Below are positions 9,819 through 39,961 of a stretch of 64,000 bases of DNA, piece after piece. Both the position numbers and the translations under genes were made by a program. Below the pieces are notes generated by a model. That model saw only the letters and a program-made list of their open reading frames with translations. It was not told where the DNA came from and made no database searches. The stretch covers positions 736,001 through 800,000 of the forward strand of contig CAVRCJ010000010.1 of NCBI GenBank assembly GCA_963719515.1, written 5' to 3'. Position 1 is the first letter of the stretch; each line of letters starts with the position of its first letter. Source of the stretch: an uncultured cyanobacterium. Its GTDB lineage: Bacteria; Cyanobacteriota; Cyanobacteriia; CAKZMO01.

Positions 9819-10541
9819 CTAACGCGATCGCCGCGTATTGAGCGCGTAGCAAAAGCGATCGGCCCGTGAGATGGTCTCGCCGTGAACTATCGGCTGTCCG
9901 CCCTGACCGCAGGCGGTATAGCGGTAAACGATCAGGGGCTGACCGATAGGAACCTCTAGATGCTGGCTGGTTTCGTAGTTTGCGTGGGTGCATTCAATCG
10001 TCGAATCCACCGTTTCAATCAAGACGTTGTGATGCTCCAGCGTCGGGAAGGTCATCTGGTGAGTCAGCGCAGCGGCGAACTGCTCGCCTAGCTCGGGCAA
10101 AATGTAGCTAATATCGATGGCACCGGCCGCGCCATCCATAAAGAACAGCTTTTTTTGCAGATAGACCGTTTGCCCATCGCCGAGCTGGAGGCTAGCTCGA
10201 ACTTCTGGCGGTGCCTCAACTGCTTCAAAAGTCAGGCTGTCAAACGTGAAGCGGATGCCCTGCCGCGCCATATCCTCCGCCAAAAACACCAAGGGGCTAG
10301 ACAGCGAGTAGGCTACCTTTTGCTGCGGCGTCACAAACACGCCCTTACCCTGATGAGAACTCGCTAACCCCTGATTGATCAAGTTGGCGATCGCCTGACG
10401 TACCGTGATTCGGCTGACCTCAAAGGTCTTCATCAGCTGGTGCTCGCTGGGAAGGCGATCGCCCGGCTGATAGTCCCCCGCTTCAATCTGCCCGCGCAGC
10501 TGTTCAGAGATCGCAATATGGAGCGGGGCCGATGTTGTCAT
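9819..10541 (-). CDS. GntR family (HutC/UTRA) transcriptional regulator
   Basis: RLPSEHQL…VSRITVRQAI…QGKGVFV HTH followed by a UTRA-type domain. Confidence 0.93.
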   Translation of the reverse strand: MTTSAPLHIAISEQLRGQIEAGDYQPGDRLPSEHQLMKTFEVSRITVRQAIANLINQGLASSHQGKGVFVTPQQKVAYSLSSPLVFLAEDMARQGIRFTFDSLTFEAVEAPPEVRASLQLGDGQTVYLQKKLFFMDGAAGAIDISYILPELGEQFAAALTHQMTFPTLEHHNVLIETVDSTIECTHANYETSQHLEVPIGQPLIVYRYTACGQGGQPIVHGETISRADRFCYALNTRRSR

Positions 10542-10561
10542 GGGTCAAATTAGCAGCTTTC

Positions 10562-10628
10562 GTATCGCTTGGCACACCCTTGTTATAGCAAGCGCAGGTA
10601 TGCTAACTTCGACTTGTTATGACAAGTC
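10562..10628 (+). promoter_or_regulatory. NtcA-type box, -10 element and two palindromic operators
   Basis: GTA-N8-CAC 10562-10575; TATGCT 10599-10604 (23 nt spacer); CTTGTTATAGCAAG 10579-10592; CTTGTTATGACAAG 10613-10626. Confidence 0.7.
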
Positions 10629-10678
10629 GTCTCGAGCAGGTCTCGAGAGCCCAGTCCCCGCAGCCCCATCTCCAGATC

Positions 10679-11638
10679 ATGCCTATCTCTACCGCTTCCA
10701 CTGCGACTACCTCCGAAAGGCCTGCTCCTGAAGCGACCGTCTCTAGCCCCAATCCCCGGCAGCTGCTATCGCCCGAGGACTTGACCCCGCTCAACGCGCG
10801 CTCCAACTACCGGGGCGGCATTCGACTTTGCGGCCACCTCATGGTTCTCGCCCTCAGCGGCTACCTGTGGGGCCATGCGCCGCTTCGGCTAGCGCTACCG
10901 GCTCTCGCGGTCTACGGCGCTGGCCTGGCCCTGATGTTTTGCGCCATGCATGAATGCTGCCACCGCACTGCCTTTGCCAGCAACTCGCTTAACGATGGGG
11001 CCGCCTGGCTTGCAGGGCTGCTGTCGTTCTATAACAGCACCTTCTACCGGCGCTATCACAAGTGGCACCACCGCTACACCCAGATTCCGGGTAAAGACCC
11101 TGAGCTGGATGACCCCAAACCTGAATCCTGGCTCCAGTATCTCTGGCAGCTTTCCGGTATTCCCTGGTGGATAGGGAAGCTGCGCGGCCACAGCCGGGTG
11201 GCGCTGGGTCAGCTTGAGGGTTGCTATTTCCTTCCCGAAAGTGCCCATAGGGAAGTGATTGCCTCAACGCGGCTGCAGCTCGGCTGCTACGGAGCGGCGA
11301 TCGCCCTTTCAGCGGCGTTAGGACATCCGGGCTTCATCGTCACCTACTGGCTCCTGCCCCTGGCCATCGGTCAGCCCCTGCTGCGGTTCGTGCTGCTGGC
11401 CGAGCACACCGGCTGCACCACCATTGACAACCCCCTCACCAATACCCGCACCACCCTGACGCTCTGGCCCCTGCATTTTCTGATGTGGAATATGCCCTAC
11501 CACGCCGAGCACCACCTCTACCCTTCCATGCCCTTCCACACCCTGCCCCAGGCTCACGCCAAGCTGCGATCGCACTTTGCCCAGGTCGATCAGGGCTATG
11601 TGCATGTGAACCGCACCATCGCGGCGGCATTTGAGTAA
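10679..11638 (+). CDS. Membrane fatty-acid desaturase/hydroxylase superfamily protein (MocD-like)
   Basis: His boxes HECCH, HKWHH, HAEHH; ATG 10679 preferred because ATG 10619 lies inside the operator. Confidence 0.85.
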   Translation: MPISTASTATTSERPAPEATVSSPNPRQLLSPEDLTPLNARSNYRGGIRLCGHLMVLALSGYLWGHAPLRLALPALAVYGAGLALMFCAMHECCHRTAFASNSLNDGAAWLAGLLSFYNSTFYRRYHKWHHRYTQIPGKDPELDDPKPESWLQYLWQLSGIPWWIGKLRGHSRVALGQLEGCYFLPESAHREVIASTRLQLGCYGAAIALSAALGHPGFIVTYWLLPLAIGQPLLRFVLLAEHTGCTTIDNPLTNTRTTLTLWPLHFLMWNMPYHAEHHLYPSMPFHTLPQAHAKLRSHFAQVDQGYVHVNRTIAAAFE

Positions 11639-12649
11639 TGGCTTCCTGCTTCCTCCTCAAGAACTTTACCCTCCAGTGCGGCGTCACGCTGCCGGAGGCC
11701 GAGCTGGTATACGAAACCTACGGTGAGCTGAACGGCGATTGCTCCAACGCCGTGCTCTACCCCACCTCCTACGGCGCGCAGCACAGCGACATCGACTGGC
11801 TCATCCGTCCGGGCGGCATCTTGGACCCCACGCGGTGGTTTGTGATCATTCCCAACATGTTGGGCAACGGGCTGTCCTCCTCGCCCAGCAGCTGCCCGAC
11901 CCTAGCCCAGCCAGACACCTACACCACCCACCTCGACAACGTCACCGCCCAGGAGGCCCTGCTGCAGTCCCTCGGCATCGAGCGGCTGGCGCTGGTCTAT
12001 GGCTGGTCGATGGGGGCGCAGCAGGCCTACCATTGGGGAGCCCTGCATCCCGAGCGGGTAGAGCGCATCGCGGCCCTATGCGGCACCGCCAAAACCACCG
12101 ACCACAACCGCGTTTTCCTGTATAGCCTGCGGGCGGCGCTGACGGGAGACCCGGCCTGGAAAGGCGATCGCTTTGAGGGAGTGCCGGAGCAGGGCTTTCA
12201 CACTTTTGCCATGATCTACGCTAGCTGGGCGGCGTCTCAGTCCTACTATCGGGAGGCCCCTTATTTGCAGTTAGGGTATTCGATCTTTGGAGGACTACCT
12301 ACAGCGGGGCTGGGAGGCAGGCTACCGCAAGCGCGACCCCCACAATTTGCTGGCGATGATCGACACCTGGCTGCGCTGCGACCTGGGGAATAACCCGACT
12401 TACGAGGGGGACTACGCCAAGGCGCTGGGGTCGATTTCAGCAAGGACGCTGGTGATGCCCGCGACGACGGACCTTTACTTCACCCCGGAAGACTGCGAGG
12501 CGGAGGCAAAGCTAATGCCCAATGCCCAGTACCGCCCGATTCCGTCGATTTGGGGCCACCGGGCGGGCAACCCATATCAAAATCCTGAGGATGAAGCGTT
12601 TATTCGAGAGGCGATCGCGGCACTGCTGAGCGACAAGCCAAAGGCTTAG
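11638..12649 (+). CDS. MetX-like alpha/beta hydrolase split by a +1 frameshift near 12283
   Basis: LVYETYGELN, GWSMGAQQA nucleophile elbow; TDLYF and WGHRAG in a second frame (12287-12649). Confidence 0.8.
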
Positions 12650-13248
12650 CCGAAAATATCGGTGACCGTCAAGCCAAAGTTTGGAACGATATCTGAGGCG
12701 ATAGTCGCAGACTGGCCCTCTTGGGTCAACGCTTCGGCTCCGCCGTAAACCGTATCCTCGTATAGGCCGTTCTCCCAGCGGCATTGGGTGATCTGTCTCT
12801 TCTCAGGGTCCACAATCCAGTATTCGGCGATGCTCCGGGCCGCGTATTCGGTGCGCTTGTAGCGGTAGTCTCGATCCCGATTTTTCTGGCCTGGAGACAC
12901 AATCTCGATGACAAGGGCGGGCGGCGGCATGTCGTGGGTGAGGGTGGCCCGCTTGGTGCCCGCTAGGGCTGCTTTTGATTCTTCTGAATGAACCAGCAGG
13001 TCGGGAATGCGGCAGGTGGCGCGGCGTCCGGAGACTTCGATTTCGGTATCTTTGTAGGCCAATAAGGCGAGGGGAACGGACTTTGCCAGCTCAAACAGGA
13101 GACGCTTGGCGATGTCGTTGTTTTCGTCGGATTCGGGCGGCATGTCCACTAAGGTTCCATTCACCAGCTCACAGCGTCTGTCCGCGAAACCGTCAAGGGA
13201 CAGGTACTCGTCTAGGGTGAGGTATGGCTTTAGGACAGGCTGAACCAT
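12646..13248 (-). CDS. Uma2 (DUF820) family endonuclease-like protein
   Basis: ELVNG, RIPDLLV, LVIEIVSPG, KRTEYA, EYWIVDP. Confidence 0.92.
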   Translation of the reverse strand: MVQPVLKPYLTLDEYLSLDGFADRRCELVNGTLVDMPPESDENNDIAKRLLFELAKSVPLALLAYKDTEIEVSGRRATCRIPDLLVHSEESKAALAGTKRATLTHDMPPPALVIEIVSPGQKNRDRDYRYKRTEYAARSIAEYWIVDPEKRQITQCRWENGLYEDTVYGGAEALTQEGQSATIASDIVPNFGLTVTDIFG

Positions 13249-13342
13249 TGTCGGTCGTGGGTGAGACGTGTTTGTCTATGGTAGGCGTTTCTTTCCTCAG
13301 ACGCAGTACGCCAGCACTTAGAAAAAAGCTAATCGAAAAGGG

Positions 13343-13930
13343 CTAATCTTTGAATTGTTCTACTACTAGCGTGAAGCCCGGTAGCACTGCTTCGCCTGAT
13401 AATTCGGTGGGCAGCGATCGCACCTCTTTCACGCTCCCCTGGCGGTAAATTTCGACCTGCTGCTTTTGGGGATTGATCAGCCAGCCCAAGCGAACGCCGC
13501 TATCCATATATTCCTGCATTTTCTCCTGCAGTGTGGTCAGGCTGTCCGTAGGCGACCTCAGCTCGATAACAAAGTCTGGAGCAAGGGGAGGAAATTTTTG
13601 CCGCTGCTCTGGGGTGAGGCGCTGCCAGCGGGATAGCTCTACCCAAGCCACATCGGGGGAGCGATCGCCACCGTTGGGGAGCTTGAATAGCGTGGAAGAG
13701 CTGAAGACTTTGCCCAGCTTGGTGCGGCGGTTCCAAAGGCCTAAATCGATGCCCAATTCGAGTTCTTTGTTTCCGCTTTCGCCGCCAACGGGGGACATAA
13801 AGATTAGGGCTCCTTGGCGATCGCGCTCGATGGCGAGGTCGGGGTTATTGAGGCAGAGCTGGTAGAACTGCGCATCGCTGAGGGGAATGTGGGTGAGGTC
13901 GATTTTGAGGGGGAGGGTGAGAGGAGGCAT
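13343..13930 (-). CDS. Uma2 family endonuclease-like protein
   Basis: RSPDVAW, APDFVIELRSPTD, GVRLGWLINP. Confidence 0.92.
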   Translation of the reverse strand: MPPLTLPLKIDLTHIPLSDAQFYQLCLNNPDLAIERDRQGALIFMSPVGGESGNKELELGIDLGLWNRRTKLGKVFSSSTLFKLPNGGDRSPDVAWVELSRWQRLTPEQRQKFPPLAPDFVIELRSPTDSLTTLQEKMQEYMDSGVRLGWLINPQKQQVEIYRQGSVKEVRSLPTELSGEAVLPGFTLVVEQFKD

Positions 13931-14014
13931 ATGGATAAGCCTATCGCTAGTAAGGGCCTGCACTCGTTGTTATTGTGCGCTATGAACTGGTGAGACTATC
14001 GTCGCGAGGCTACA

Positions 14015-15202
14015 CTAAGGCAGATCATCTTCAAGTTGAATATCGCGCAGAGAATATCGTTTATCTGTAGACGTATTAGAGCTTTCTAAAACCTCTACGA
14101 CAACCTGACGGTTCACCATGGGCCCAATCACATCATCAATTTCGTCTTCAGCATCATAGATTCTTTCATTTTTACCGTTGATGCTTACTTCAATCCAGTC
14201 ACTGTCTAGCTGTAAGCCGCGAAGTATTCCCTTCAACTGAACAACTTTACGAGCAGAGACTTGCTGAAGAGCGATGTCAGGCGCACTTATGAAATTCACC
14301 TCAGGCTTTTTCAAGACTTGCTTAATCACTTTACGAGTATCTGTACTAAGAACGACTGGATAAGGATAAATGTCGTTGCTAGAGTTGATCTTGATTTGAT
14401 CAAATGATTTTCCTGAAGCAGGTGGTGCAAGCTCGCGAGTCAATTTTAGAAACGCTTTTCTATAATCTTCTTGAGGAACCACTTCAGCTAGTTTTCCCTC
14501 AGGATCTTGCGCAGTTGCTCTAACAATCTCAAGAAACTTCTTAGTAATTTGCTCTACACGCAATTCAACATTTTCCATGCCAGCAAAGCCAAGCTGCTTA
14601 AAGTCTTGAGGTTTGCGCACTCGGACTTCAAACTGGTAACTACCAGCAGGAGCCTGGAAGAGCCAAGGATCGCATTGGCTTTTAATGTTTTGGCTAGGGG
14701 CACCGCGAGTCCTGAGAGGCTGCTCTAAAAGAAGTTCCGTCGTCCGATAAAATATATTTTTGATTCGATCAACTTTTTCTAGAATAAGTTCTAATGGAGC
14801 CGCGCCGTATAAAATTTCTCCCCCGCTTACTGAAACTAAAACTTCACCCTCTATGAACTGAATTCCCGACTTGGCACGGGATTCTTCGTAACGAATCATC
14901 TGTAGCATATCTTCTAGCTCATCTATGGCAAAGGGTGCTAAGAGCTCAGTAGCCAACCACTTATGGGCAGCACGCCTTGCTTGAGCAAGCTCTTTAGCCT
15001 TGTAGTAGAGCGAAACGGCGCTAACGGCTGTAATACTTATAGTTCTGGTTTTGCTAGGAGCGAGACTTTCTATCGCATACGTCTCCGCTTCTGCAGCTAA
15101 GCGGTAAAAATCAGCAGCACGATCATGGTCATGACGTGCATTGAGCTCTTCTGCTTGACTCACATATTCTTCGCTCTGAGTATGATGTATTAACCAGCTC
15201 AT
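14015..15202 (-). CDS. Hypothetical protein, AT-rich; helical N-terminus, beta-rich C-terminus
   Basis: 395-aa ORF; start overlaps the upstream stop (ATGA); no HIP1 site seen. Confidence 0.75.
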   Translation of the reverse strand: MSWLIHHTQSEEYVSQAEELNARHDHDRAADFYRLAAEAETYAIESLAPSKTRTISITAVSAVSLYYKAKELAQARRAAHKWLATELLAPFAIDELEDMLQMIRYEESRAKSGIQFIEGEVLVSVSGGEILYGAAPLELILEKVDRIKNIFYRTTELLLEQPLRTRGAPSQNIKSQCDPWLFQAPAGSYQFEVRVRKPQDFKQLGFAGMENVELRVEQITKKFLEIVRATAQDPEGKLAEVVPQEDYRKAFLKLTRELAPPASGKSFDQIKINSSNDIYPYPVVLSTDTRKVIKQVLKKPEVNFISAPDIALQQVSARKVVQLKGILRGLQLDSDWIEVSINGKNERIYDAEDEIDDVIGPMVNRQVVVEVLESSNTSTDKRYSLRDIQLEDDLP

Positions 15203-15762
15203 GATTCTTCATCAACTGTATGAAGTAGTACCAACTGTACACTGAAGCCAACGATAGATACTAAGGCAGGTAGATTACTATTGCCTCTTCTAGCTTGATC
15301 GATCTTGACACGTAGTCGCTTCTTCACCTCTGCCTTATTTGAACTCGTTCCTGAAATTTCTAATCTAAAGCAATTTTCCAAGTCTTCTAAATCTCGGTTG
15401 CTCAAAGCAACGTAATAGTCTGCACCTGTGCCCTTTGACATACGCCGAATAGCAAAAATATTTCTTAGAAGCTCTATTGTTGCAATTGCAAAAGCGCAAG
15501 CTCCAGCTTCTGTCGCATCATCTTTATCCCATGCTGCTTTAATTCTATTATCCGTTGCCTTCCACTCTACCCTTGCTATAGATTCGTCATTATCATCTTC
15601 TAGAGTAAATTCTTTAGGTGAAAGATGATGGCGATCGAGACAAACTCTGGCAGCTTCAAGGTAGCTATTTGCAATAGACTGGGTGAGAGCCTGATGTCGC
15701 TCAGCCATATCCTCTATAGGTAGTAAAGGAAGATCACTATCAGTCAAAATTAACCTCAACAA
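15199..15762 (-). CDS. Hypothetical protein with possible PD-(D/E)xK-like nuclease fold
   Basis: DATEAGA…GTGADYYV…RLEISGT…KIDQ motif order; start codon uncertain. Confidence 0.65.
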   Translation of the reverse strand: MLRLILTDSDLPLLPIEDMAERHQALTQSIANSYLEAARVCLDRHHLSPKEFTLEDDNDESIARVEWKATDNRIKAAWDKDDATEAGACAFAIATIELLRNIFAIRRMSKGTGADYYVALSNRDLEDLENCFRLEISGTSSNKAEVKKRLRVKIDQARRGNSNLPALVSIVGFSVQLVLLHTVDEES

Positions 15763-16158
15763 ATAAGAGCGGTTTTATTCCTTTCTACTAAATCTACCCG
15801 CGTGGCGTAGTGAATGTCCAAAACAATACAACTACGTCTTGGTGCGATCGCCCCCTCACCAAAATTTCCCTTCACCACGGTTGCGATGGTCGAAGACCGG
15901 TCCTCAAGGACCATCGCCCCCCAACTCATGTATTCTCTCACTCAGCGCTCAAACACAGGCGCTCTCCAGAGGTGGTGAAGACACCTCCAGAGAGCTGAGC
16001 CCGCGCGAACTGGACATGGCAGAACGGCGGACCTACAGTTGAGTTTACAGCTCTCCTGGTGGCCCACCCCACTTTGCCTGCCTTCCCCGAAGGCGCACAG
16101 CAAGCGGGGTGTCTTGCTGTTTGGGCGCGTTATAAAACACCACCAGGAGAACAACTCA

Positions 16159-16452
16159 ATGACCCACGAAACGCCCCGCGATTGCCCCGGGGCCAACTCT
16201 GGCAGGCCCGACCCCAGCCAGGAGGCCTTACCCTACCCCTCCACGCCGCTGCCCCCCTCCAGCCAGCAGCCCACAGGCGGCTTTTATCGCCTGCGCATCA
16301 TCGCCACCGGGGTACCCCAAGCCGTGCAAAGCCACGTCAATGCCATGTACCACTTTGGCTACGCGCAGCCCTGGCAGTGGACCGACCCCGTCCCCACCGC
16401 CGACCCCGGCGAAGTGATGCGCGTCCTCACTAAGCAGGTACCTGCGCCTTAG
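16159..16452 (+). CDS. Small hypothetical protein (cyanobacterial-type family)
   Basis: AGGAG SD at 16145; IIATG…VQSHVNAMYHFGYA…WTDPVPT…GEVMRVLT. Confidence 0.7.
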   Translation: MTHETPRDCPGANSGRPDPSQEALPYPSTPLPPSSQQPTGGFYRLRIIATGVPQAVQSHVNAMYHFGYAQPWQWTDPVPTADPGEVMRVLTKQVPAP

Positions 16453-16484
16453 CAGGACGGGTGCATTCGCGCCCAGAGGCCACC

Positions 16485-16519
16485 AAGGCACCGGAGCTTC
16501 CCCATAGCTCCGGTGCCTT
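16485..16519. terminator. 14-bp perfect hairpin, likely terminator
   Basis: AAGGCACCGGAGCT-N7-AGCTCCGGTGCCTT, about 30 nt after the stop at 16452. Confidence 0.55.
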
Positions 16520-16571
16520 AGAATTTGGATAGAACCACTTGAATAGAAACACCGCGAGAGGCAGCGCAACC

Positions 16572-17177
16572 ATGGTCGCTCTTCAAGACTTGTCTGAATG
16601 GCTCAAAGCTGACGACCCCGAAGAGCGCCAGATCATCAGCGGCGTCAGCTGGGAAAGCTACGATACCCTGCTGAGCAGTGGCGATCGCCTCCCTCACCGC
16701 ATTGCCTACCTAGACGGAGTCCTAGAGCTTGTGTCCCCCAGTCGCCGCCACGAGCGCCGAAAAAGCATCATCGGGTCTTTGCTAGAAGACTACTTCAAAG
16801 AAAAGCGAATCCGCTACTTTCCCCTCGGCTCAGCGACGTTTCGCCAGCAGAACCAGCGCGGCGGCGTCGAACCTGACGAGTCTTACTGCTTGGGCACCGA
16901 AAAAGCGCTTCCTGACTTGGCGATTGAGGTCGTCGTCTCCAGCGGCGGCATCGACAAGCTAGAGGTTTATCGGCGGCTAGCGGTCAGCGAAGTCTGGTTT
17001 TTCAAGGGCGATCGCTTTAACGTCTATCGCCTAACCGCAGCAGGATACGAACTCACCGAGAGCAGCCCTCTACTGCCGGACCTAGATCTAGATCTGCTGG
17101 CTCAGTACGTCGTCGCCCCAGACCCGCTTGATGCCGCGATCGCCTTTCGAGACGCCATCCGGGAGGTACAACCATGA
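16572..17177 (+). CDS. Uma2 family endonuclease-like protein
   Basis: SWESY, YLDGVLE, EPDESY, PDLAIEVV, EVWF. Confidence 0.92.
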   Translation: MVALQDLSEWLKADDPEERQIISGVSWESYDTLLSSGDRLPHRIAYLDGVLELVSPSRRHERRKSIIGSLLEDYFKEKRIRYFPLGSATFRQQNQRGGVEPDESYCLGTEKALPDLAIEVVVSSGGIDKLEVYRRLAVSEVWFFKGDRFNVYRLTAAGYELTESSPLLPDLDLDLLAQYVVAPDPLDAAIAFRDAIREVQP

Positions 17178-28438: not shown

Positions 28439-28495
28439 AGTTGTTGTACCAAGAGTTTGCAACTCAACAGCGCTAGCGACTGTGCCAACAGCTAC
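28439..28495 (-). promoter_or_regulatory. Possible NtcA box and degenerate operator upstream of amt
   Basis: Minus-strand GTA-N8-CAC at 28482-28495; GTTGTTGTACCAAG 28440-28453 (3 mismatches to CTTGTTATAACAAG). Confidence 0.4.
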
Positions 28496-31158: not shown

Positions 31159-33087
31159 TCAATGACAGGCCCCATGTTTACCCGGCGACGGCGGCACATC
31201 ATTCGCCGGATTCTCATCAAAGAAATTCAGCGGCTTCAGCATAAACCCAATGGTCGACACCGGCATCACCGGCCAGTCTTCCGCCCTAGGCGAATGGCTG
31301 TGGGCAAAGGTGTACCACACCACCAGGTCCGTGTCTTCAACAGAGCGATCGCCCTGGGTCCACTGGGGCAGCCCTGCCTCGCCGGGGTGCTGGTTGGGGT
31401 AAGGGCCAGCGGGAAAAGATTCATCGGGGTGGTAGGGGGTCACCCAAAGATGCTTCGACATATAGCGCGCCCGCTTGCTCACCCCGGCATCGGGATGGGC
31501 CAGGGGCAAGGTGTTCTCCCCCGGCATCAGCTTGTAGGCCGTAGGGTAGCCCATGGCGTTGGTCTTGTCGGGGTTGATGATTTTCCAGTAGCGCCCCTTC
31601 CAGGGGTCGATGGTGCGCTGGGCGGCTAGCTCGGTGGGCAGCAGGGTGGACTGGGCGTAAAAGGCGTTGCCGTAGGGGTTGTTCTCCTCATCTTCCGGCA
31701 CAATGTCTACCTCGTAGACGGAGTTGTGCGGCCCGTCAACGGCCATATCGAGCCGCACGTTGAAGATGTGCTGGTGGATGGGGGCGTTGAGCTGCGGGGC
31801 CACCAGGGTACCGTATTTAGGCACCTCTCCCGGCATGGCGGCGGCGGTGCTGACGATGCCGGTGAGCTTCACCTGATACTCAATGGTGCCGTCTTGGTAG
31901 AAGTACCAATAGAAGGCATATTCGTAGTTGCCCACCGTGGCGACGAAGGAAACCACCAAGCGGCGCGATCGCCTCACCTCAGTTTCCTCCGTGCGCCAGT
32001 CCACATGCTTCCAGAGAATGCCGAAGTCCTCCTCATGCAGGCAGACGGCGTTTTCGATGCTGGCTACGTCGCCTTTGGAGGTGGCCAAAAAGGCGTCGAA
32101 GTAGTGAATTTCGCCCAGACAGTCGCAGCCTAGCGTTAAGGAGTTGGCCAGCGAGCCGACGCCGTACTCCCCCACGTCAAAGGCATTTTTGCGGTAGTGG
32201 TGAGACCGGGGGTCGCCGTAGGGCACGGTCATTTCAGCCAGAGAAGCCCGGTAAATTACGGGACGCTCCTCCCCTTGGTCATTGTAGGTGATGGTATAGA
32301 GCACCAGCCCTTCTCTGGGGGTAAAGGCGACTCTCATCTTCCACTTTTGCCAGCTGATTTCGTGGCCGTTGACCGTAAAGCTCGGCCCTTCCGGCTGCAC
32401 AATTTCTAGGGGCTTGATGTCCTGGCGGTAGTTCTTGACGTATTCGGTAGAGTAGTTGCCGTCTTTGGGCGGCAGGGGCACCACGCCGTGGTCCTCCACG
32501 CGCACCAGCTCCATTTTGTTGAGGTCCACTACCGGAATCACCCCTTCAATGGGACGGGCGTAGCCGTTGTCGGTGGGGTTAGCCCTCACCCAGCACAGGG
32601 CCCGCGAGAGCCTTACGCCTTTCTCGTCTGCGATGCCGTAGTTGCCCGCCGACCAGGAGTCTACCATCACTAGACTGGGGTCAGTAATGCCGCGCTTAGC
32701 GATCGCCGCCTGAAAGTCGGGGTCTGCCTTAACGGCCTCTTCGCACGCCAAGAATTCATCCAGCATGATGGGGGGCTGCACGCCCGGAATGTGCTCCCAG
32801 CGGGTGACGGTGCGGCTGGCTAGGTCTATATCGGCTTCGTAGGTTTTGGCCGTGCTGCTGTCCAGGAGAATGAGGAAAGCTGACCGCTTCACGGCATCAC
32901 CCGGCGTAAAGGCGAGTACAGCGTCTTTAGCGGGTTCTTTGAGGGTGACGGTGGCGAAGCGGAAGCTGCCGCCGAGGGGTTTGGCCTCGCGGAGAGCGGC
33001 GACGGCGGTTTCGATTTCCGCTGGGGTTAGGGGATCTAGAGGGTGGGCGATCGTTTGGGTTTGGACTCGTTCTTGAGCAATAGTCAT
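31159..33087 (-). CDS. Copper-containing primary amine oxidase (TPQ)
   Basis: HPLDPLT, AFDVGEYG, TVGNYEY (TPQ Tyr), HQH, HSPRAEDWPVMP. Confidence 0.96.
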   Translation of the reverse strand: MTIAQERVQTQTIAHPLDPLTPAEIETAVAALREAKPLGGSFRFATVTLKEPAKDAVLAFTPGDAVKRSAFLILLDSSTAKTYEADIDLASRTVTRWEHIPGVQPPIMLDEFLACEEAVKADPDFQAAIAKRGITDPSLVMVDSWSAGNYGIADEKGVRLSRALCWVRANPTDNGYARPIEGVIPVVDLNKMELVRVEDHGVVPLPPKDGNYSTEYVKNYRQDIKPLEIVQPEGPSFTVNGHEISWQKWKMRVAFTPREGLVLYTITYNDQGEERPVIYRASLAEMTVPYGDPRSHHYRKNAFDVGEYGVGSLANSLTLGCDCLGEIHYFDAFLATSKGDVASIENAVCLHEEDFGILWKHVDWRTEETEVRRSRRLVVSFVATVGNYEYAFYWYFYQDGTIEYQVKLTGIVSTAAAMPGEVPKYGTLVAPQLNAPIHQHIFNVRLDMAVDGPHNSVYEVDIVPEDEENNPYGNAFYAQSTLLPTELAAQRTIDPWKGRYWKIINPDKTNAMGYPTAYKLMPGENTLPLAHPDAGVSKRARYMSKHLWVTPYHPDESFPAGPYPNQHPGEAGLPQWTQGDRSVEDTDLVVWYTFAHSHSPRAEDWPVMPVSTIGFMLKPLNFFDENPANDVPPSPGKHGACH

Positions 33088-33130: not shown

Positions 33131-33520
33131 AAGGCCCCCTCCGCCGCTAGTTCTGGGGGGCTAGGCTATGCGTTTGAAGCGATCGCTGTCATTGATTTTG
33201 AGAAGATCTAGCGTCACTAGCTCCCCCAAGAATTGGGGGCTGGGGGGCCTTTTCAAGGGGTAGAACATTCAGAGAATCACAAGGCATAAATTTTAGTGAC
33301 CAGTAACGCACCGACTGGGGTTGATGGAACCTGGCTGCTTGGGGGCCTATCCCCCAAACCCCCTTGGCTGGGGGACGAGTTGCCTCCCTCAGCGGCCTCC
33401 TACAAACGGCGGTGTCTGTGAGACGGTTTAAATGTAGGGTGGGTTGATGAGGGAAGCCCACCCTTTCTCGCAGGCGCATCGGTTTCAGTAGGGTGGATTA
33501 ACGTAAGGGAGCCTACCCTT
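33131..33520. repeat. Cluster of intergenic hairpin repeats (three families, including copy 3 of the double-hairpin repeat)
   Basis: CCCCCAAGAATTGGGGG ~33223; inverted copy of the 23128 repeat at ~33339-33400; GTAGGGTGG…CCC palindromes at ~33433-33520. Confidence 0.6.
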
Positions 33521-33539
33521 TATTGCGATCGCGTCACGC

Positions 33540-34973
33540 TTACGTCACGCTTACGGCCAGCGGCTTAGCTGCCTCAACCGTCAATTCCTCATCACCGAGC
33601 TCAGACAACAGCTGCTCCGCCAGCTTACGCTTGCCCTCAGCATCCAGCTTCTTCACCTCGTTGTGCAGCACCCGCTCATTCACCGACTGATTCCAGTAGT
33701 CTAGGACATCAAACCCCAGCAGCGCCGACTTGCCCACAAACTGCCGCAGCACTTCGTTTGTCGGCCCCATTACCCAGCCTGCTTTGCCGTCCCGCAGGTA
33801 GCGCTCCACCTCCATATCTTTCTTAAAGCCCGAGCCGCCGCAGGCGTGGAGCATCTTGTCGCAGACGTGGGCCACGTTCTTGGCCGCCGCAAACTTGATC
33901 TGCCAATACCAATGCAGGTAGGCCGAGCGCGGTAGGGCCGTCAAATCATCATGAATGGTCCAGTCACAGTCTTTTGTGAGCTGGTCCATCAGCTGCCCCA
34001 TCGAAAAGGTGTACATGCGGCAGGCGCTGGTGTCTATTACCCCTTCGCCAAAGTAGTCCTGAATAGTGGGGTAGTCGGCCACCCGCATCCCTACGTCAGC
34101 GTGTTTTTTGCGGGTGACGTGCTTTTTGGCGATATCCATCGCGCCTAGAGCAATGCCGTTCCAGCAGGCAGAGGAGCACAGCAGGAAAAACGGATCGACA
34201 ATCTCATCGTTGGAGGCGACGCCGTCGCCCTTGGTGCCCACCATCCGCTGCGTGGGAATATCTACCCCATCCACCAGCAGCGTCCCCGACTGGTTGCCCC
34301 GCAGGCCCATGGCGTCCCACTTGTGGGGCTCGGCCTGCACCTCGTCGCGATAGATCAAAAAGCAGGACAAATCAGAAAAGTCCCCGGCAAAGTCGGGGCT
34401 GCTAGTCTGCACAATATACCAATCGGCAAAACCCGCCGAGGTGGTCCAGGAGGCCCGCTTCGAGACGCGCCAGCCGTCGTCAGTAGCTTCGGCTTTGGAG
34501 GAAACGGGGTACCAAAAGTGGGAGCCGGTTTCGGGGTCGGAGTAGGACAGGGTGCCAATGAAGACGTCTTGGTCTAGCCGCCTCAGCAGCTCCTGAATCT
34601 CTGGGTTCTGATGCGCCCGAAACAGGGCGGCGGCGACGGCCCCGAGGTGCATGGTGTAACACATGGCCGTGCTGGGGCAGCCGTAGCGGGCGATAGTTTC
34701 TACGACCATGGCGGCACAAACGTGGTTTTCCCCCAGACCGCCCCACGTCTTAGGAACAAGCAGCCCCAGCAGCCCTAAGGACGCCAGCGCCTCAAAGTTT
34801 TCGCGCGGGTAGATGAGGTTGCGGTCTGAGGCGATCGCATTGGGCCGCAGTACGGTGGCGCATAGGTCAATCAGCTGCTGTTGGAGCTGCTGCTGCTCGG
34901 GGGTGAGCAACCACTGGGGGTCAAAGTCGTCGCTGAGGCCGGTGAAAGGTTCGCCGTTCCAGGTTTTTGCCAT
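33540..34973 (-). CDS. Acyl-CoA dehydrogenase family flavoprotein
   Basis: SYSDPETGSH, WDAMGLRGNQS, HACGGSGF, ERYLRDG. Confidence 0.9.
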   Translation of the reverse strand: MAKTWNGEPFTGLSDDFDPQWLLTPEQQQLQQQLIDLCATVLRPNAIASDRNLIYPRENFEALASLGLLGLLVPKTWGGLGENHVCAAMVVETIARYGCPSTAMCYTMHLGAVAAALFRAHQNPEIQELLRRLDQDVFIGTLSYSDPETGSHFWYPVSSKAEATDDGWRVSKRASWTTSAGFADWYIVQTSSPDFAGDFSDLSCFLIYRDEVQAEPHKWDAMGLRGNQSGTLLVDGVDIPTQRMVGTKGDGVASNDEIVDPFFLLCSSACWNGIALGAMDIAKKHVTRKKHADVGMRVADYPTIQDYFGEGVIDTSACRMYTFSMGQLMDQLTKDCDWTIHDDLTALPRSAYLHWYWQIKFAAAKNVAHVCDKMLHACGGSGFKKDMEVERYLRDGKAGWVMGPTNEVLRQFVGKSALLGFDVLDYWNQSVNERVLHNEVKKLDAEGKRKLAEQLLSELGDEELTVEAAKPLAVSVT

Positions 34974-35012: not shown

Positions 35013-35909
35013 TCAGGCGGCGATCGCCGATTTTGCCAGCGGGTCAGCGCAGTAGTCGGCTAGGAAAGGCGTCCGGTAGCCGTCCTCCTGCCACAGGATC
35101 GGGAAAAAGCTCTCATCCATCGCCGTGTCCCCCACCCGCTTGTAGCGGCCATAGATGTAGCCCGCCGGGTTCGTCGGGTGAAATCGCGCCACCGACGGCA
35201 GCGTATGCAGGCCAATGCTGTGGAAGCAACCCTCAGTGCGCGTTGTTGGACATAGCCCGTGCCAGGTCCGTCCGTGGTGGAAGGCGCAGCCCCCCGCCGG
35301 AACATCTACCACCACCACCTCAGGTTCCGCGACCCCGGCCTGCTCAGCCGCTTGCAGCATCGCCCAGCGGTAGTCTTTAGTGGGCGCGTGGAACTCTCCC
35401 GCCACGTCGATTAGCGGCCATTTGTGGGATCCCTTCGCATAAATCAGCGTCCCGTCTGCCGCCGTTGCGTTGTCCAGCGCTACCCAGCAGGTCATCATCG
35501 CGGCGGGGTCGAGGTAGTCCACATAGGCCCCGTCCTGATGCATGGCGATCGCCTTCGCTTGGGGGGGCTTTACCCAAAGGCTGTCCTGCCCGATGCGCGC
35601 GCCGCTCCACCCTGCAAGGGCAGCCGTCAAGCGGCCAATTTCGGAGGAGAGCACCAGGCTGGCCACCGTGCGATCGCTCTTCCAGCCGTTGCAGATTTCT
35701 CGGGTGACGTCGGGGAGGCTCAGGCCAGGCCGCCAGTGCCACTCGTCGGGGTAAACGCCGGTCTCGAAGTCGCCATGAAACATGGGTCCCAGGCGGCTAG
35801 CGAGCTGCTGGGCAAACTCTGAAGGTAGGAAATTCTCTACGATCAAAAATCCGTCAGTTTGAAACTGGTGGATTTGTTCTCTAGATAGGGTTATGGGCTG
35901 GTAGTCCAT
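35013..35909 (-). CDS. Phytanoyl-CoA dioxygenase (PhyH) family Fe/2OG oxygenase
   Basis: FQTDGFL, MHQD, TCWVALD, GSHKW, HGRTWHG. Confidence 0.92.
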   Translation of the reverse strand: MDYQPITLSREQIHQFQTDGFLIVENFLPSEFAQQLASRLGPMFHGDFETGVYPDEWHWRPGLSLPDVTREICNGWKSDRTVASLVLSSEIGRLTAALAGWSGARIGQDSLWVKPPQAKAIAMHQDGAYVDYLDPAAMMTCWVALDNATAADGTLIYAKGSHKWPLIDVAGEFHAPTKDYRWAMLQAAEQAGVAEPEVVVVDVPAGGCAFHHGRTWHGLCPTTRTEGCFHSIGLHTLPSVARFHPTNPAGYIYGRYKRVGDTAMDESFFPILWQEDGYRTPFLADYCADPLAKSAIAA

Positions 35910-35990: not shown

Positions 35991-36037
35991 CTTGTCATAA
36001 TAAGTTCGCGCCTCAAACAAACAGTAGCCCCGACTAC
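35991..36037 (-). promoter_or_regulatory. NtcA box, -10 element and overlapping operator
   Basis: GTA-GCCCCGAC-TAC 36024-36037; minus-strand TATTAT at 35997-36002 (21 nt spacer); CTTGTCATAATAAG 35991-36004. Confidence 0.7.
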
Positions 36038-36076: not shown

Positions 36077-36809
36077 ATGACCCAATCTTCCACCATCCCT
36101 GCCCTGCCGCTCGTTCAATCCGGCCACCTCCATATCGCCGCCAGCGATTTCGACGCGCGCCCCATGAGCTACGTCTCTGACAGCACTCGCAGCGGTTATG
36201 AGCCTGAGCTAGCCCGCATTCTGTGCGATCGCCTCGGACTCGCCCCCACCTGGCACAATTTGCCGATGGAGGAGTTTTACACCTGCTTTGAGACAGGCCG
36301 CTACGACGCGGTGTGGTTTAACCAGGCCGTTACCCCGGAACGCCAGCAGAAAGGTCGCGTTTACCCAGCCTTACGGCCTGTTTGATGAGGCCGTATTGGT
36401 TCAGCAGGGCAGCGGCATCGCCTCCCCAGAAGATCTGCGCGGCAAGCGGGTGGGCGGACTAGCCGACAGCACCAATATCGCTCTGGTGGAGGGCTTTCCA
36501 GAGGCGATCGCCGTCCCGTACCCCGGCAGCGATAAGGTGCTGCCCGAGATGCTGGAAGCGCTGCGCAAGGGGGAGATTGACGCCCTGATTGACGACGAGC
36601 TGGTGCTGGTGGTGGCTGCGGAGGAAGACCCAACCCTACAGCTGGCGTTCACGCTGCCGACCCGAGTACCCTTCGCTATTGCGGTTTCCCCCGATAAGCC
36701 AGAACTGCTGGCAGCGCTAAATGGGGCGATCGCTGAGATGCTGGCAGACGGTGCCCTGCAGCAGCTGTGGAGCAAGTGGATTCCCTGGAAACCATTTCCG
36801 CTTGAATAG
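36077..36809 (+). CDS. Family 3 (amino acid-type) solute-binding protein split by a +1 frameshift at ~36352
   Basis: SGYEPELAR…VTPERQQK then VAFTQPY…DLRGKRVG…KGEIDA in the next frame; no signal peptide seen. Confidence 0.75.
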
Positions 36810-36875: not shown

Positions 36876-36908
36876 GTAATCCGCGATACAAACTCGTCAT
36901 AACGAGTT
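36876..36908 (+). promoter_or_regulatory. NtcA box immediately followed by palindromic operator
   Basis: GTA-ATCCGCGA-TAC 36876-36889; AACTCGTCATAACGAGTT 36891-36908. Confidence 0.75.
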
Positions 36909-36950
36909 CGCTTTACTGGGGCCAACGTTTCAACCACTGGAGCCCGAGCA

Positions 36951-38462
36951 ATGACTGGAGTGATAGCCCGAGCAGCAACAGCCGATCCCAGCACGACGGA
37001 TCTCCATGCCTACGTCAATGCAGAAGGGCGGAGCGACTTAGTTGCCCAGGTGCGATCCAAAATCCGCGAGCTGGGCATTCAGTACATCTACTACCAATTC
37101 GTCTCGGTGACCGGGCGCATCGTCGGCAAGGGCATTCCCGCCGACCATTGGGAGACCACGGCAGAAAACGGCTTTCAGCTGGTCTACGGCGCAACGGTGA
37201 ATCTAGCCATCAATCGCCACCGCAACTACATGGGCTACGGGCCAGAGGCGGCAGAGCTGGTGGCCATCCCGGACCCGGAAACCTTTTGCCAGCTGCCCTG
37301 GGACAAGCGCGTGGCGCGGGTCTACTGCGTCTGCTTTCGCAACCGCGAGGAAGTGGAGGAGGCTGGGGCGTTTCTCACCGCCGACTGCCGGGGTAACCTG
37401 AAGCGCATCCACGCTGACTTTCAGGCCACCCACGGTTTGCATCTGCGCCACGGCTGCGAGCCGGAGATGATGTGGCTCAAGAAAGGGCCGGACGGTAAGC
37501 CTAACGGCGGTGTTACCAAGCCCAACTGCTACCACATCGACCAGTTTGAAGAGCTGCGCCCTGTCTTCCTACGGGTGATTGAGTACAGCCGCGCTATGGG
37601 CCTGGACATGATTCAGGGGGATCATGAAGATGCGCCGGGTCAGCTCGAGCTGAACTTCATGTATGACGATGCCCTGCGCACCTGCGATCGCCTCACCACC
37701 TACCGGCAGATCTGCGCCCAGGTAGCCCGCGAGTTCGATCTGATTGCCTGCTTCATGTCCAAGCCGTTCTTGGGAGTGTCGGCCTCAGGCTGTCACCACA
37801 ACCTGTCGCTTTGGGACGGCGGCAGCGACAAAGCAAACACCTTTGATCTTGAAACCCTACCGGGAATGGAGGAGAATTTCACCTACCGCAAGGGCGGAGA
37901 AAACACCTTCATGCCCGTGGAGGGAGAATCTCGTCGCATTCCGGGGCCGGTGGGCCTCAAGTGCATTGGCGGCGTGATTGAGCATTTAGGAGCCTTGACG
38001 GCGATCGGCTGCTCCACGGTGAACTCCTACCGCCGTCTGTGGGATGCGGGCTTTTGGGCTCCGGTTTATTCCGACTGGGGCTACCAAAATCGCACCTGCG
38101 GGCTGCGGGTATCCGCGCCGGGGCGGTTTGAGTATCGGGCGGTAGATTCGATGGTGAACCCCTACCTGATGGCGGGGGCGCTGCTGAAGGCCTTTGACGA
38201 TGGCCTCACCCGAAATCTCGACCCCGGCGAGCCGGAGCAGCGCAACATCTATGAGGCAATGGAAACCGGCAAGCAGGTGACGAAACTGCCCATGTGCCTG
38301 GGAGAAGCGGTAGACCGGCTCGCAGAAGATGAGGTGATCAAGTCGGCAATGCCGGGGGATATGCACCGGCTTTACGACGAGTATAAGCGGGATGAGTGGG
38401 AGCGCTTTTTGGCGACCACCAGCAACTGGGACAGTGAGGAGTACATGGACTGCCTGCCGTAG
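36951..38462 (+). CDS. Third, divergent glutamine synthetase-like ligase
   Basis: GRIVGKG, GCEPEMMW, DHEDAPGQLELN, FMSKPF, ASGCHHN, QNRTCGLRV, RFEYR. Confidence 0.9.
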   Translation: MTGVIARAATADPSTTDLHAYVNAEGRSDLVAQVRSKIRELGIQYIYYQFVSVTGRIVGKGIPADHWETTAENGFQLVYGATVNLAINRHRNYMGYGPEAAELVAIPDPETFCQLPWDKRVARVYCVCFRNREEVEEAGAFLTADCRGNLKRIHADFQATHGLHLRHGCEPEMMWLKKGPDGKPNGGVTKPNCYHIDQFEELRPVFLRVIEYSRAMGLDMIQGDHEDAPGQLELNFMYDDALRTCDRLTTYRQICAQVAREFDLIACFMSKPFLGVSASGCHHNLSLWDGGSDKANTFDLETLPGMEENFTYRKGGENTFMPVEGESRRIPGPVGLKCIGGVIEHLGALTAIGCSTVNSYRRLWDAGFWAPVYSDWGYQNRTCGLRVSAPGRFEYRAVDSMVNPYLMAGALLKAFDDGLTRNLDPGEPEQRNIYEAMETGKQVTKLPMCLGEAVDRLAEDEVIKSAMPGDMHRLYDEYKRDEWERFLATTSNWDSEEYMDCLP

Positions 38463-38557
38463 CCTAAACGCCCAACCCTAGACGCCTGCCTCTAACCGCC
38501 CAATATAGCCTGCACGCCTGCAGCCACCTGAGAAACAATCAATTGGAAAAGTCTTCG

Positions 38558-39961
38558 ATGATAACAACTAAATTTGACGTCAGATCCCACGGACTGCGCT
38601 TGGTCAGCGCTAGCAGTCTGGTGCTGGGAATCTTGGCCCCCTCACCCAAGGCGATCGCGGTAGAGTGCGGCCCTTCCCCAGAATCGCCCCAGTCTCATAT
38701 GCTGCCAGTCAATGCCGACACCGTGCATTGGGGATACTTCAGTCAGACTTTAGACCCGCAGCTGGTGATTCACTCCGGCGATACGGTGACGGTAGACACC
38801 TTGACCCACCACGCCAATGACGCCCCAGAGCTGATGGTGACCGGCGATCTAGGGGCAGAGAGCGTCTACGCCTGGACGGAAGACTTCAAGGGCGTCGATC
38901 GTCGGGGGGCGGGATCGGTAGACCCAGAGGTGTATGAAAACGGGGCTGGACAAGGCTTCGGGGTGCATATTCTCACCGGGCCGATTTACGTCTGTGGGGC
39001 TGAGCCTGGCGACGTCATCGAAGTGGAAATTCTTGAGGTGACGCCCCGTCCCAGCGCTAATCCAGAGTATGACGGACGCACCTTTGGCAGTAATGCAGCC
39101 GCCTGGTGGGGGTTTCACTATAGCGACCTCATCGAAGAGCCCAGCGATCGCGAAGTCATCACGATTTACGAACTCGACGCCACGGGAGAGCAGGACTACG
39201 CTACCGCTCTATTCAACTTCCAGTGGACTCCGCAAACCGATCCGTTTGGCGTGGTTCACCCCACCATCGATTACCCTGGTGTACCGGTGGACCCCGAGAC
39301 CGTGACCCGGAATTACGATGTGCTGGAAGGTATTGAAGTGCCGGTTCGACCGCACTTTGGCGTCATTGGCCTCGCCCCTAGTGAAGCTGACATTGTAGAT
39401 TCCGTGCCGCCTAGCTACTTTGGCGGTAATATTGACAACTGGCGCATTGGCGCTGGCGCCACGATGTACTACCCCGTAGCGGTCGCTGGTGGACTGCTGT
39501 CCCTAGGGGATCCCCATGCTGCCCAAGGGGATTCAGAGCTAGCGGGCACCGCCATCGAGACCTCCCTGACGGGAACGATTCGGGTCCATGTCCATCGCCA
39601 AGACGAGCTGCCCGGTACGGTGCTAGAAGGCCTTTACTATCCCCTGCTGGAAACAGAAACTGAGTATGTGGTCCACGGGTTTAGCTACGCCAACTACCTG
39701 GAAGAATTAGGGGAAACGGCGCAGCAAGACATCTACAATAACTCCTCCATCGATGAGGCAATGCGGGACGCCTTCCGCAAGCTGCGCCATTTTCTCATGA
39801 CGACTCAGGGGCTCAGTGAGGATGAGGCGATTACGCTGATGTCCGTGGCCGCTGACTTTGGCATTACGCAGGTGGTGGACGGCAACTGGGGCGTCCACGG
39901 CATTCTCGAAAAAGAGGTGCTTGTGCCTTCGCCTGAAGCGCTGCCGGATGCGACGGAGTAA
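38558..39961 (+). CDS. Acetamidase/formamidase family protein with apparent signal peptide
   Basis: TVHWGYF, HILTGPIYV, GGNIDN, GDPHAAQGDSE; N-terminal hydrophobic stretch ending in AIA. Confidence 0.88.
   Translation: MITTKFDVRSHGLRLVSASSLVLGILAPSPKAIAVECGPSPESPQSHMLPVNADTVHWGYFSQTLDPQLVIHSGDTVTVDTLTHHANDAPELMVTGDLGAESVYAWTEDFKGVDRRGAGSVDPEVYENGAGQGFGVHILTGPIYVCGAEPGDVIEVEILEVTPRPSANPEYDGRTFGSNAAAWWGFHYSDLIEEPSDREVITIYELDATGEQDYATALFNFQWTPQTDPFGVVHPTIDYPGVPVDPETVTRNYDVLEGIEVPVRPHFGVIGLAPSEADIVDSVPPSYFGGNIDNWRIGAGATMYYPVAVAGGLLSLGDPHAAQGDSELAGTAIETSLTGTIRVHVHRQDELPGTVLEGLYYPLLETETEYVVHGFSYANYLEELGETAQQDIYNNSSIDEAMRDAFRKLRHFLMTTQGLSEDEAITLMSVAADFGITQVVDGNWGVHGILEKEVLVPSPEALPDATE

Follow-up and report, generated by a model that had tools for sequence, protein, structure and literature searches.

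The 64,000-nt stretch of DNA of a filamentous cyanobacterium analysed here (the window) contains, at 9819-39961, an island of amine- and nitrogen-related genes that is arranged around a conserved cyanobacterial operon pair and that, as we consider fairly probable from homology and gene linkage, could support the nitrogen-regulated scavenging of trimethylamine N-oxide (TMAO), dimethylamine (DMA) and methylamine (MMA). By sequence, four components are orthologous to those of the proteobacterial methylated-amine cluster, namely the demethylase-like protein Tdm, a GmaS-like ligase, a subtype of the transporter Amt and, in related cyanobacteria, the monooxygenase Tmm. They stand in a cyanobacterium-specific frame composed of a SoxG-like partner, a PhyH-family dioxygenase, either an acyl-CoA dehydrogenase-like (ACAD-like) protein with a copper amine oxidase (CuAO) or Tmm, a divergent glutamine synthetase-like (GS-like) ligase (GS3) and a probably cytoplasmic protein of a solute-binding protein (SBP) fold. 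Every gene class named in an earlier sequence-only reading of the region, which had proposed a multi-substrate route for releasing ammonium from amines, was recovered in its place by Pfam and NCBIfam profile scans of the window proteins, and these family assignments bear out its view that the genes are amine- and nitrogen-related. The substrates, which that reading had called unknown, are suggested to be TMAO, trimethylamine (TMA), DMA and MMA by the orthology of Tdm, GmaS and Amt to proteobacterial clusters together with the occurrence of Tmm in relatives.

The Tdm-like gene (29123-31030, minus strand) encodes DUF1989, GCV_T and GCV_T_C domains (PF09347 at residues 31-195, PF01571 at 255-521 and PF08669 at 547-627), and its product is 48-51% identical to proteobacterial Tdm over the whole shared length of an alignment and 46-51% identical in the best tblastn segments. 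The proteobacterial loci compared (L092-L096) were from Roseovarius nubinhibens ISM, Roseibium, Pseudomonas tumuqii and two metagenome-assembled genomes (MAGs), four of which, one MAG among them, entered the alignment. For the Methylocella silvestris enzyme, the published study gives C263, C279 and C343 as zinc ligands and H276, D346 and D198 as Fe-site or bridging residues (PMC12560246). The island protein shares with that enzyme the DUF1989 and GCV_T domains and the equivalents of all six residues, since D60, C121, H134, C137, C201 and D204 are invariant in the alignment and their spacing (13, 3, 64 and 3) equals that of the published metal site; the numbering was mapped by this spacing, the M. 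silvestris sequence lying outside the alignment. It differs in lacking the first ~150-165 residues, in reaching 814 bits against the Tdm model NF053776 (profile positions 152-762 of 763) where the equivalog cut-off is 1100, and in having an obligatory small neighbour gene. The ~165 N-terminal residues of the four proteobacterial proteins are absent from all five cyanobacterial sequences aligned; the first ~150 residues of Tdm are reported to form a DUF1989-like third domain that is called "ubiquitous" in homologs (PMC12560246).

The small neighbour is an open reading frame (ORF) of 167 amino acids (aa) at 28614-29117 on the minus strand, found immediately downstream of Tdm in 57 of the 60 loci with room for it. 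The protein gave no Pfam or NCBIfam match at E<=1 and does not belong to the SoxG sequence family; one ortholog gave a single match (E=0.014) to the GCV_T part of the Tdm model, and the family is small: at E<=0.001, 1.84 billion representatives yielded 52 proteins. Its AlphaFold model (mean pLDDT 93.7) resembles GcvT (1yx2, TMq 0.76) and, over nearly the full length, the gamma subunit of sarcosine oxidase (1vrq_C and 2gag_C, TMq 0.67, TMt 0.58-0.60), so that the label "SoxG-like", already used in the sequence-only reading, is borne out at the level of the fold. The same model rules out that the ORF is the split-off N-terminal DUF1989-like domain of Tdm, its fold being that of GcvT/SoxG and not of DUF1989.

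Structure prediction supports binding of the SoxG-like protein to the short Tdm. The predicted complex scored 0.76, the best control 0.00, and this mark was attained by 116 solved complexes out of 157 and by 2 mismatched pairs out of 215, counts that hold only roughly because the alignments were author-supplied. At least 98% of the contacts are shared between runs, and the pLDDT of the partner is at least 86. On the Tdm side the confident contacts (residues 123, 127-135, 204-207 and 211-212) fall on the metal-ligand loops of the DUF1989 domain and not on GCV_T, which makes it improbable that the prediction simply reproduces a memorized SoxA-SoxG complex. SoxG of heterotetrameric sarcosine oxidase and the small subunit of N-methylglutamate dehydrogenase are likewise small GcvT-fold proteins beside a GCV_T-domain, C1-releasing enzyme; the 167-aa protein departs from SoxG in its lack of sequence-family membership, in a partner that is not a flavoprotein oxidase, and in a predicted contact with DUF1989 metal-site loops instead of a SoxA-type subunit.

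Two of the three GS-like ligases are close to GmaS. GS1 (20903-22228, minus strand) and GS2 (23246-24661, plus strand) scored 568.9 and 560.6 against TIGR03105, above the cut-off of 469.6, and their closest solved relatives are Rhodovulum GmaS (7CQL, 521 bits) and a structure annotated as "glutamate--methylamine ligase" (9QUR, 397 bits), respectively. GS3 (36951-38462, plus strand; PF00120, 254 bits) stays below the same cut-off (294.7), lies at ~176 bits from GS and GmaS structures alike, and carries an insertion of about 25 residues. The residues described as diagnostic of GmaS are the catalytic Asp177, Glu186 and Arg312, a Trp (Trp300) where GS has its Glu-flap glutamate, and an Ala (Ala48') where GS has Asp50' (PMC7948447). 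All five are matched in GS1 (D186, E195, R321, W309 and A55); in GS2 and GS3 the three catalytic residues and the Glu-flap Trp are retained, and the Asp50' position is taken by Thr in GS2 and by Tyr in GS3. The Asp and Glu on which glutamine synthetase relies for ammonium are missing from all three ligases. Among related genomes, which as kin are not independent, GS1 orthologs (at least 67% identity) were present in 11 of the 13 with Tdm and in 4 of the 28 without it. No canonical type I GlnA above the TIGR00653 cut-off was found in this 100% complete genome, and no window ligase reaches the GlnA cut-off; a full-length type III GlnN is encoded at C5:172045-174216, and the other GS-like proteins found in the genome are GS1-GS3. 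In another cyanobacterial genome (G026:C74:226471-237202), two GmaS-like genes lie within 10 kb of a ~980-aa SoxA-like GCV_T protein, which suggests a complete N-methylglutamate-type pathway there.

The transporter gene (26700-28151, minus strand; PF00909, 216 bits) encodes a divergent Amt, whose score against TIGR00836 (217) falls short of the cut-off of 343. With the Amt proteins encoded next to tdm in Pseudomonas (L092) and in a Rhodobacteraceae MAG (L095) it shares 46-49% identity, and with the other Amt paralogs of its own genome 26-33%; it can be regarded as a candidate methylammonium/ammonium permease. The fourth shared component, Tmm, was identified in relatives: the flavin-containing monooxygenases (FMOs) of two loci of the second cluster type described below (G031 and G012, the two that were scanned) scored 798 and 794 bits, above the NCBIfam equivalog cut-off of 675.

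Comparison with other cyanobacteria showed that the region is a composite of a ~13-kb conserved core (25.7-38.5 kb) and accessory modules, and not one 30-kb unit. The window proteins were compared by tblastn with 67 cyanobacterial loci, many of them truncated by contig ends, and presence was counted within 10 kb of Tdm, a span that undercounts rare genes because some lie 5-11 kb from Tdm in the window. Two arrangements were recognized. In type A, that of the window, GS3 and SBP are divergent from PhyH, ACAD-like, CuAO, Tdm, the 167-aa ORF, Amt and a small membrane ORF; in type B, PhyH is divergent from SBP, Tdm, the 167-aa ORF, FMO and GS3, and in G012 the FA_desaturase-like and MetX-like genes come after GS3, the former in the same direction. 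PhyH and GS3 occur in both types. Tmm was never found alongside ACAD-like or CuAO (0 overlaps; 7 Tmm loci and 27 ACAD loci among the 67). Next to the Tdm/167-aa pair, the following gene was Amt in 29 and Tmm in 5 of 49 loci, and the gene upstream of Tdm was CuAO in 24 and SBP in 6 of 48. Across the 67 loci, the 167-aa ORF was present in 59, Amt in 39, CuAO in 32, ACAD-like in 27, PhyH in 26, SBP in 25 and GS3 in 24, followed by FA_desaturase-like and GntR (5 each), MetX-like, ALDH, Fe-ADH and GS2 (2 each), GS1 and GATase (1 each) and FmdA (0), the accessory families being described below. Where at least 8 kb was available on each flank (23 loci), Amt was found in 16, SBP and GS3 in 15 each, PhyH and CuAO in 14 each and ACAD in 13. 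The synteny expected by the sequence-only reading is therefore real for the core, which is co-conserved across many cyanobacteria, and does not extend to the 30-kb set as a whole.

Since the core order recurs in so many genomes, the grouping exceeds chance. Full-length Tdm-like orthologs were found in 66 cyanobacterial species loci with best-segment identities of 64-87% (the 67th locus, L098, is a fragment), so that the synteny is not an artefact of near-identical genomes; the nearest public loci are in MAGs labelled Elainellaceae, at 87% and 84% identity. Record labels of the carriers include Elainellaceae, Nodosilinea, Phormidesmis, Leptolyngbya, Stenomitos, Shackletoniella, Kaiparowitsia, Leptothoe, Halomicronema, Halothece and Hydrococcus. 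Carriage of the Tdm-like gene is common close to this genome, with 13 carriers in 41 related genomes, and rare in the phylum as a whole, where an even sampling gave 4 in 401. Some relatives carry further genes in the cluster. A MOSC-domain gene adjoins GS3 in three of them (L049:1564-2349, L097:14490-15332 and L089:14044-14829), lying between Tmm and GS3 in L097 and L089; the MOSC-domain family comprises N-hydroxy- and N-oxide-reducing enzymes. A recurrent extra module 3' of Amt (L049:14542-19172, L097:17548-21784 and L085:12370-15426) combines a DUF6885 gene with a GS-like ligase of a fourth type and with one or two PhyH genes. By tblastn, the genome studied here has no MOSC, DUF6885 or close fourth-type GS-like ortholog, and the ligase query matched only GS1-GS3, at 25-28%.

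Nitrogen control is suggested by sites of the NtcA type. The window contains 12 GTAN8TAC motifs, where 4.6 would be expected, and 0 of 100 shuffles gave as many. Four of these sites lie in intergenic regions of the island: between the divergent GS1 and GATase genes (22297-22310), between the ACAD-like gene and CuAO (33503-33516), in the divergent PhyH/SBP promoter region (36024-36037) and upstream of GS3 (36876-36889). In the orthologous loci other than the window, where the background density is 1 site per 5439 bp, an exact site was found between the 167-aa ORF and Amt in 31 of 31 loci, between SBP and GS3 in 15 of 19 and between PhyH and SBP in 9 of 21, compared with 2 of 22 between ACAD-like and CuAO and 0 of 28 between CuAO and Tdm; the 33503 site is not conserved in other loci. 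The window's own site before Amt is a near-consensus GTA-N8-CAC with one mismatch (28482-28495, minus strand). By this pattern, at least Amt and GS3 are probably under NtcA control.

Among the remaining core proteins are some that could supply oxidative steps. CuAO (31159-33087, minus strand; PF01179, 568 bits) passes the cut-off of the primary-amine oxidase model NF008559 (984 against 651), and among structures it is closest to Arthrobacter AGAO (532 bits), followed by the yeast methylamine oxidase 1A2V (436 bits). It carries the motifs NYE, the precursor motif of the topaquinone (TPQ) cofactor, and HQH, of the HxH form that supplies the copper His ligands. It resembles the cytoplasmic Arthrobacter-type enzymes (AGAO and methylamine oxidases) in these motifs and in having no signal peptide, and differs from them in its context with Tdm. 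In the same-genus genome G003, the CuAO gene (L009:6164-8094) is broken into ORFs of 131 and 496 aa.

The ACAD-fold flavoprotein (33540-34973, minus strand), in which the N, M and C domains of ACADs are matched weakly and which scores low against true ACADs, is unlikely to be a classical acyl-CoA dehydrogenase: its best NCBIfam match is to the Rv1679 family (211 against a cut-off of 600), and in an alignment made by eye it reads VMGPTNEV where ACADs have YEG, the catalytic Glu motif of the medium-chain enzyme. In the ESM Atlas it falls into generic "short-chain ACAD" and "dibenzothiophene monooxygenase" (DszC-like) clusters, which is a lead and not decisive. The PhyH-family Fe(II)/2-oxoglutarate dioxygenase (35013-35909, minus strand; PF05721, 74 bits) has the HxD motif and distal His residues, and weakly matches ectoine hydroxylase and methylphosphonate hydroxylase. 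The SBP_bac_3-fold protein (36077-36809, plus strand; Pfam matches on two adjacent frames) is similar to proteins that bind polar amino acids and ectoine; in it and its orthologs the sequence starts with the mature domain and no signal peptide precedes it, which makes a cytoplasmic location probable.

On this basis, a route may be proposed. TMAO would be split into DMA and formaldehyde by a two-subunit demethylase made up of the short Tdm and the SoxG-like protein, the latter predicted to cover the Zn/Fe site of the former. In relatives, Tmm would supply TMAO from TMA, and the ACAD-fold flavoprotein may fill an equivalent oxidative role here. The PhyH dioxygenase and the cytoplasmic CuAO could oxidize DMA and MMA, the latter converting MMA to ammonium, formaldehyde and H2O2, and both amines may in addition be captured as gamma-glutamyl amides by GS3, GS1 and GS2. 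The divergent Amt would import methylammonium or ammonium, under the probable NtcA control noted above. The class I glutamine amidotransferase-like protein (GATase), the iron-type alcohol dehydrogenase (Fe-ADH), the aldehyde dehydrogenase (ALDH), the FA_desaturase-like and MetX-like proteins, the GntR regulator and the formamidase-like protein would form looser accessory modules, which may handle gamma-glutamyl amide hydrolysis, aldehydes and amides.

Several observations weigh against this reading. The short Tdm without its N-terminal domain and its score below the equivalog cut-off have been mentioned. This genome has no Tmm, and the cluster has no TMAO-type transporter, its SBP-like protein being without a signal peptide. 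CuAO is nearest to a phenylethylamine oxidase, so that MMA is one possible substrate among others, and an NtcA site before amt is expected for any cyanobacterial amt. Among the three GCV_T matches of the genome (Tdm, GcvT and a YgfZ-like protein) there was no SoxA/MgdC-like subunit of the N-methylglutamate pathway, Mgs genes not having been searched separately; as this pathway is not evident, the reading offers no outlet for gamma-glutamylmethylamide. The accessory modules are seldom linked to the core in the 67 loci. Finally, the SBP_bac_3 fold, PhyH and the FA_desaturase-like protein could point to an amino-acid-like substrate.

This last point leads to the main rival, which we regard as rather unlikely: the core would act on another N-methylated or N-oxidized compound, such as an N-methylated amino acid or an osmolyte, with SBP, PhyH, the FA_desaturase-like protein and GS3 setting the substrate and the Tdm-like protein removing a methyl group. 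The short Tdm, with its score below the equivalog cut-off, and the resemblance of the SBP fold to polar amino acid and ectoine binding proteins are in keeping with it, as are the weak PhyH matches to ectoine and methylphosphonate hydroxylases and the missing TMAO transporter. So is the FA_desaturase-family membrane di-iron protein (10619-11638, plus strand; PF00487, 139.6 bits), a candidate hydroxylase with three His boxes (HECCH, HKWHH and HAEHH) and a weak best NCBIfam match to arginine hydroxylase, and so are the relatives' MOSC gene, from a family of N-O reductases, and their modules of a GS-like ligase with two PhyH genes. Set against these are the Tmm genes of relatives, which pass the equivalog cut-off and belong to the same operon, the 46-51% identity of Tdm to the proteobacterial enzymes with all metal-site residues kept, and the co-occurrence with Tdm of GmaS-like ligases and of the tdm-associated Amt type.

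Within the methylated-amine reading, a more specific proposal can be made, for which we claim only a small chance of being right in both its parts: a two-subunit TMAO demethylase joined to a ligate-then-demethylate route from methylated amines to glutamine, both of which would be new. The SoxG-like protein would stand in for the N-terminal pseudo-DUF1989 domain, cap the Zn/Fe site and perhaps pass formaldehyde to folate. GS3, or the fourth ligase type in relatives, would join DMA or MMA to glutamate, and PhyH would strip the N-methyl groups as formaldehyde, giving glutamine without the N-methylglutamate pathway. The recurrent GS-like and PhyH pairs, the modules of a GS-like ligase with two PhyH genes and the lack of a SoxA/MgdC-like subunit fit such a route; the MOSC gene beside GS3 and the DUF6885/GS-like/PhyH/PhyH modules in relatives would likewise fit N-O and N-methyl chemistry on gamma-glutamyl amides.

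The interpretation given by the sequence-only reading itself, one 30-kb multi-substrate unit with Puu-like gamma-glutamylation of polyamines, ethanolamine and other primary amines, appears distinctly unlikely. It draws on the presence together of three GS-like ligases, a class I GATase (22352-23089, plus strand; PF00117, weak Peptidase_C26; 167 against NF005458, cut-off 250; a candidate gamma-glutamyl-amide hydrolase), an ALDH (17803-19200, minus strand; PF00171, 447 bits) and an Fe-ADH (19341-20540, minus strand; PF00465 and PF25137), and on the action of CuAO on primary amines; moreover, ALDH and Fe-ADH adjoin Amt near the Tdm cluster in L089 and L097, and GATase is next to GS2 in L089. The ligases, however, do not reach the cut-off of 650 of the gamma-glutamylputrescine synthetase (PuuA) model NF045547 (255.5, 260.7 and 221.1), and GS1 and GS2 are much nearer to GmaS. 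The ALDH reaches no NCBIfam equivalog cut-off, its best match being to succinate-semialdehyde dehydrogenase (380.6 against 521) and its score against PuuC (NF007352) being 229.3 against 850; the best NCBIfam matches of Fe-ADH, all below cut-off, are to 4-hydroxybutyrate dehydrogenase, lactaldehyde reductase and the choline dehydrogenase GbsB. As counted above, GS1, GS2, GATase, ALDH and FmdA are not kept as a unit in the 67 loci. The same-genus genome G003 is without the whole 12.4-28.6 kb segment (Uma2 genes, ALDH, ADH, GS1, GATase, GS2 and Amt), its GntR module directly abutting the SoxG-like 167-aa gene, and about 5 kb of Uma2 genes and genes without family interrupt the set in the window. 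The Puu pathway is the weaker analogy.

It is highly improbable that the genes are chance neighbours without shared function: they do occupy several strands and transcription units, Uma2 insertions lie inside the set with an IS605-type TnpB just past its right end, and two genes are frameshifted in the assembly, but the core order is kept in dozens of species of several families, Tmm and ACAD/CuAO are mutually exclusive, the NtcA-type sites are conserved, and one of the two frameshifts is contradicted by 3 of 3 metagenome contigs.

Methylated amines (TMAO, TMA, DMA and MMA) are common breakdown products of nitrogen-containing osmolytes, and their catabolism has been worked out in heterotrophs. 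The use of their nitrogen has so far been described mainly in non-photosynthetic bacteria, and microalgae are stated to be usually unable to metabolize them (PMC7574528). In agreement with the sequence-only reading, which knew of no such gene combination in a cyanobacterium, no cyanobacterial Tmm/Tdm/GmaS cluster was found described in a full-text literature search with most subscription journals outside its coverage. "Cyanophyceae" GmaS homologs do already appear in a published alignment, according to its figure legend (PMC7948447). If our interpretation is true, oxygenic phototrophs of mats, crusts and sediments would be able to tap methylated-amine nitrogen directly.

Compared with the Tmm-Tdm-GmaS pathway of marine Roseobacter, SAR11 and Methylocella, in which TMA is converted through TMAO, DMA and MMA to gamma-glutamylmethylamide, the island is alike in its orthologous Tdm with the metal-site residues, its GmaS-like ligases, the Amt subtype beside tdm and, in relatives only, Tmm. 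It differs in the short Tdm with a separate SoxG-like protein, in the lack of Tmm and of a SoxA/MgdC-like subunit in the genome, and in the additional PhyH, ACAD-like, CuAO, cytoplasmic SBP-like and GS3 proteins, none of which was found by tblastn in the five proteobacterial loci; its host is a photoautotroph, and NtcA control is predicted. The cluster would also provide a naturally "split" form of Tdm, open to testing and relevant to the role of the extra Tdm domains, and PhyH, ACAD-like, GS3 and the SBP-like protein become candidates for the missing steps from DMA to MMA and for gamma-glutamylmethylamide processing. Ligation followed by oxidation of a gamma-glutamyl amide is also the logic of the Ipu (isopropylamine), aniline and naphthylamine pathways. 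The island resembles these and Puu in combining a GS-like ligase, a class I GATase-type hydrolase and oxidizing enzymes, and differs from them in ligases well below the PuuA-type cut-off and in oxidizing partners that are PhyH-type dioxygenases, not P450 or Rieske enzymes.

Outside the core, the left end of the island is formed by a GntR/UTRA regulator of the HutC/PhnF type (9819-10541, minus strand; Pfam GntR and UTRA, all NCBIfam matches below cut-off), divergent from the FA_desaturase-like gene, and by a MetX-like alpha/beta hydrolase (11638-12628, plus strand; NF005757, 297 bits, profile 9-223 of 339). The latter gene is frameshifted near 12275-12282, its first ORF being 11638-12393, and the intact 334-aa ortholog of G003 aligns to it in two frames. 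The stretch is represented in four metagenome runs of one study, all of them DNA and none RNA, and the extra base near 36347-36349 that splits the SBP gene is absent from all three contigs covering it, so that this frameshift is an assembly error or a rare variant and the gene is probably intact in the population. The interrupting segment at 12646-17788 looks like an inserted islet: four Uma2 genes (Pfam) flank a 44%-GC part with two ORFs of 395 and 187 aa (14015-15762), for which no Pfam, NCBIfam or PADLOC match was found, and the Uma2 gene at 12646-13248, the sole one scanned in PADLOC, matches the candidate defence family PDC-S03.

Between GS2 and Amt, a TPR protein gene and a 299-aa ORF without family occupy 24832-26612 on the minus strand. 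The ORF (25713-26612, minus strand), which lies 3' of Amt and has no family match in Pfam, NCBIfam or PADLOC, matches in its N-terminal ~140 aa, with hydrophobic stretches, an ORF of 146-153 aa that comes next after Amt in other loci; it is about twice as long as these orthologs and overlaps the TPR gene start by 100 bp, which may reflect another frameshift or a mis-called start. At the right end, the FmdA/AmdA-family amidase (38543-39961, plus strand; PF03069, 105.7 bits) missed the cut-off of the formamidase model NF045496 (64 against 500) and is a genome-specific addition, found in 0 of the 67 related loci. Beyond it follow a HAD-IIB phosphatase gene (40010-40837) and the IS605-type OrfB/TnpB (41005-42306). 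Genes for the H and T proteins of glycine cleavage are found at a distance of 6 kb from the island (46392-48031); they may be linked to the C1/folate handling of released formaldehyde or be a coincidence. Further downstream, a cyanate-utilization set (57548-62281) comprises cyanate lyase (58254-58751), an ABC ATPase (58875-60125) and an NMT1_2-type binding protein (60611-62281) and is adjoined by a HupE/UreJ protein (57548-58285), indicating that the wider window is rich in alternative-nitrogen genes.

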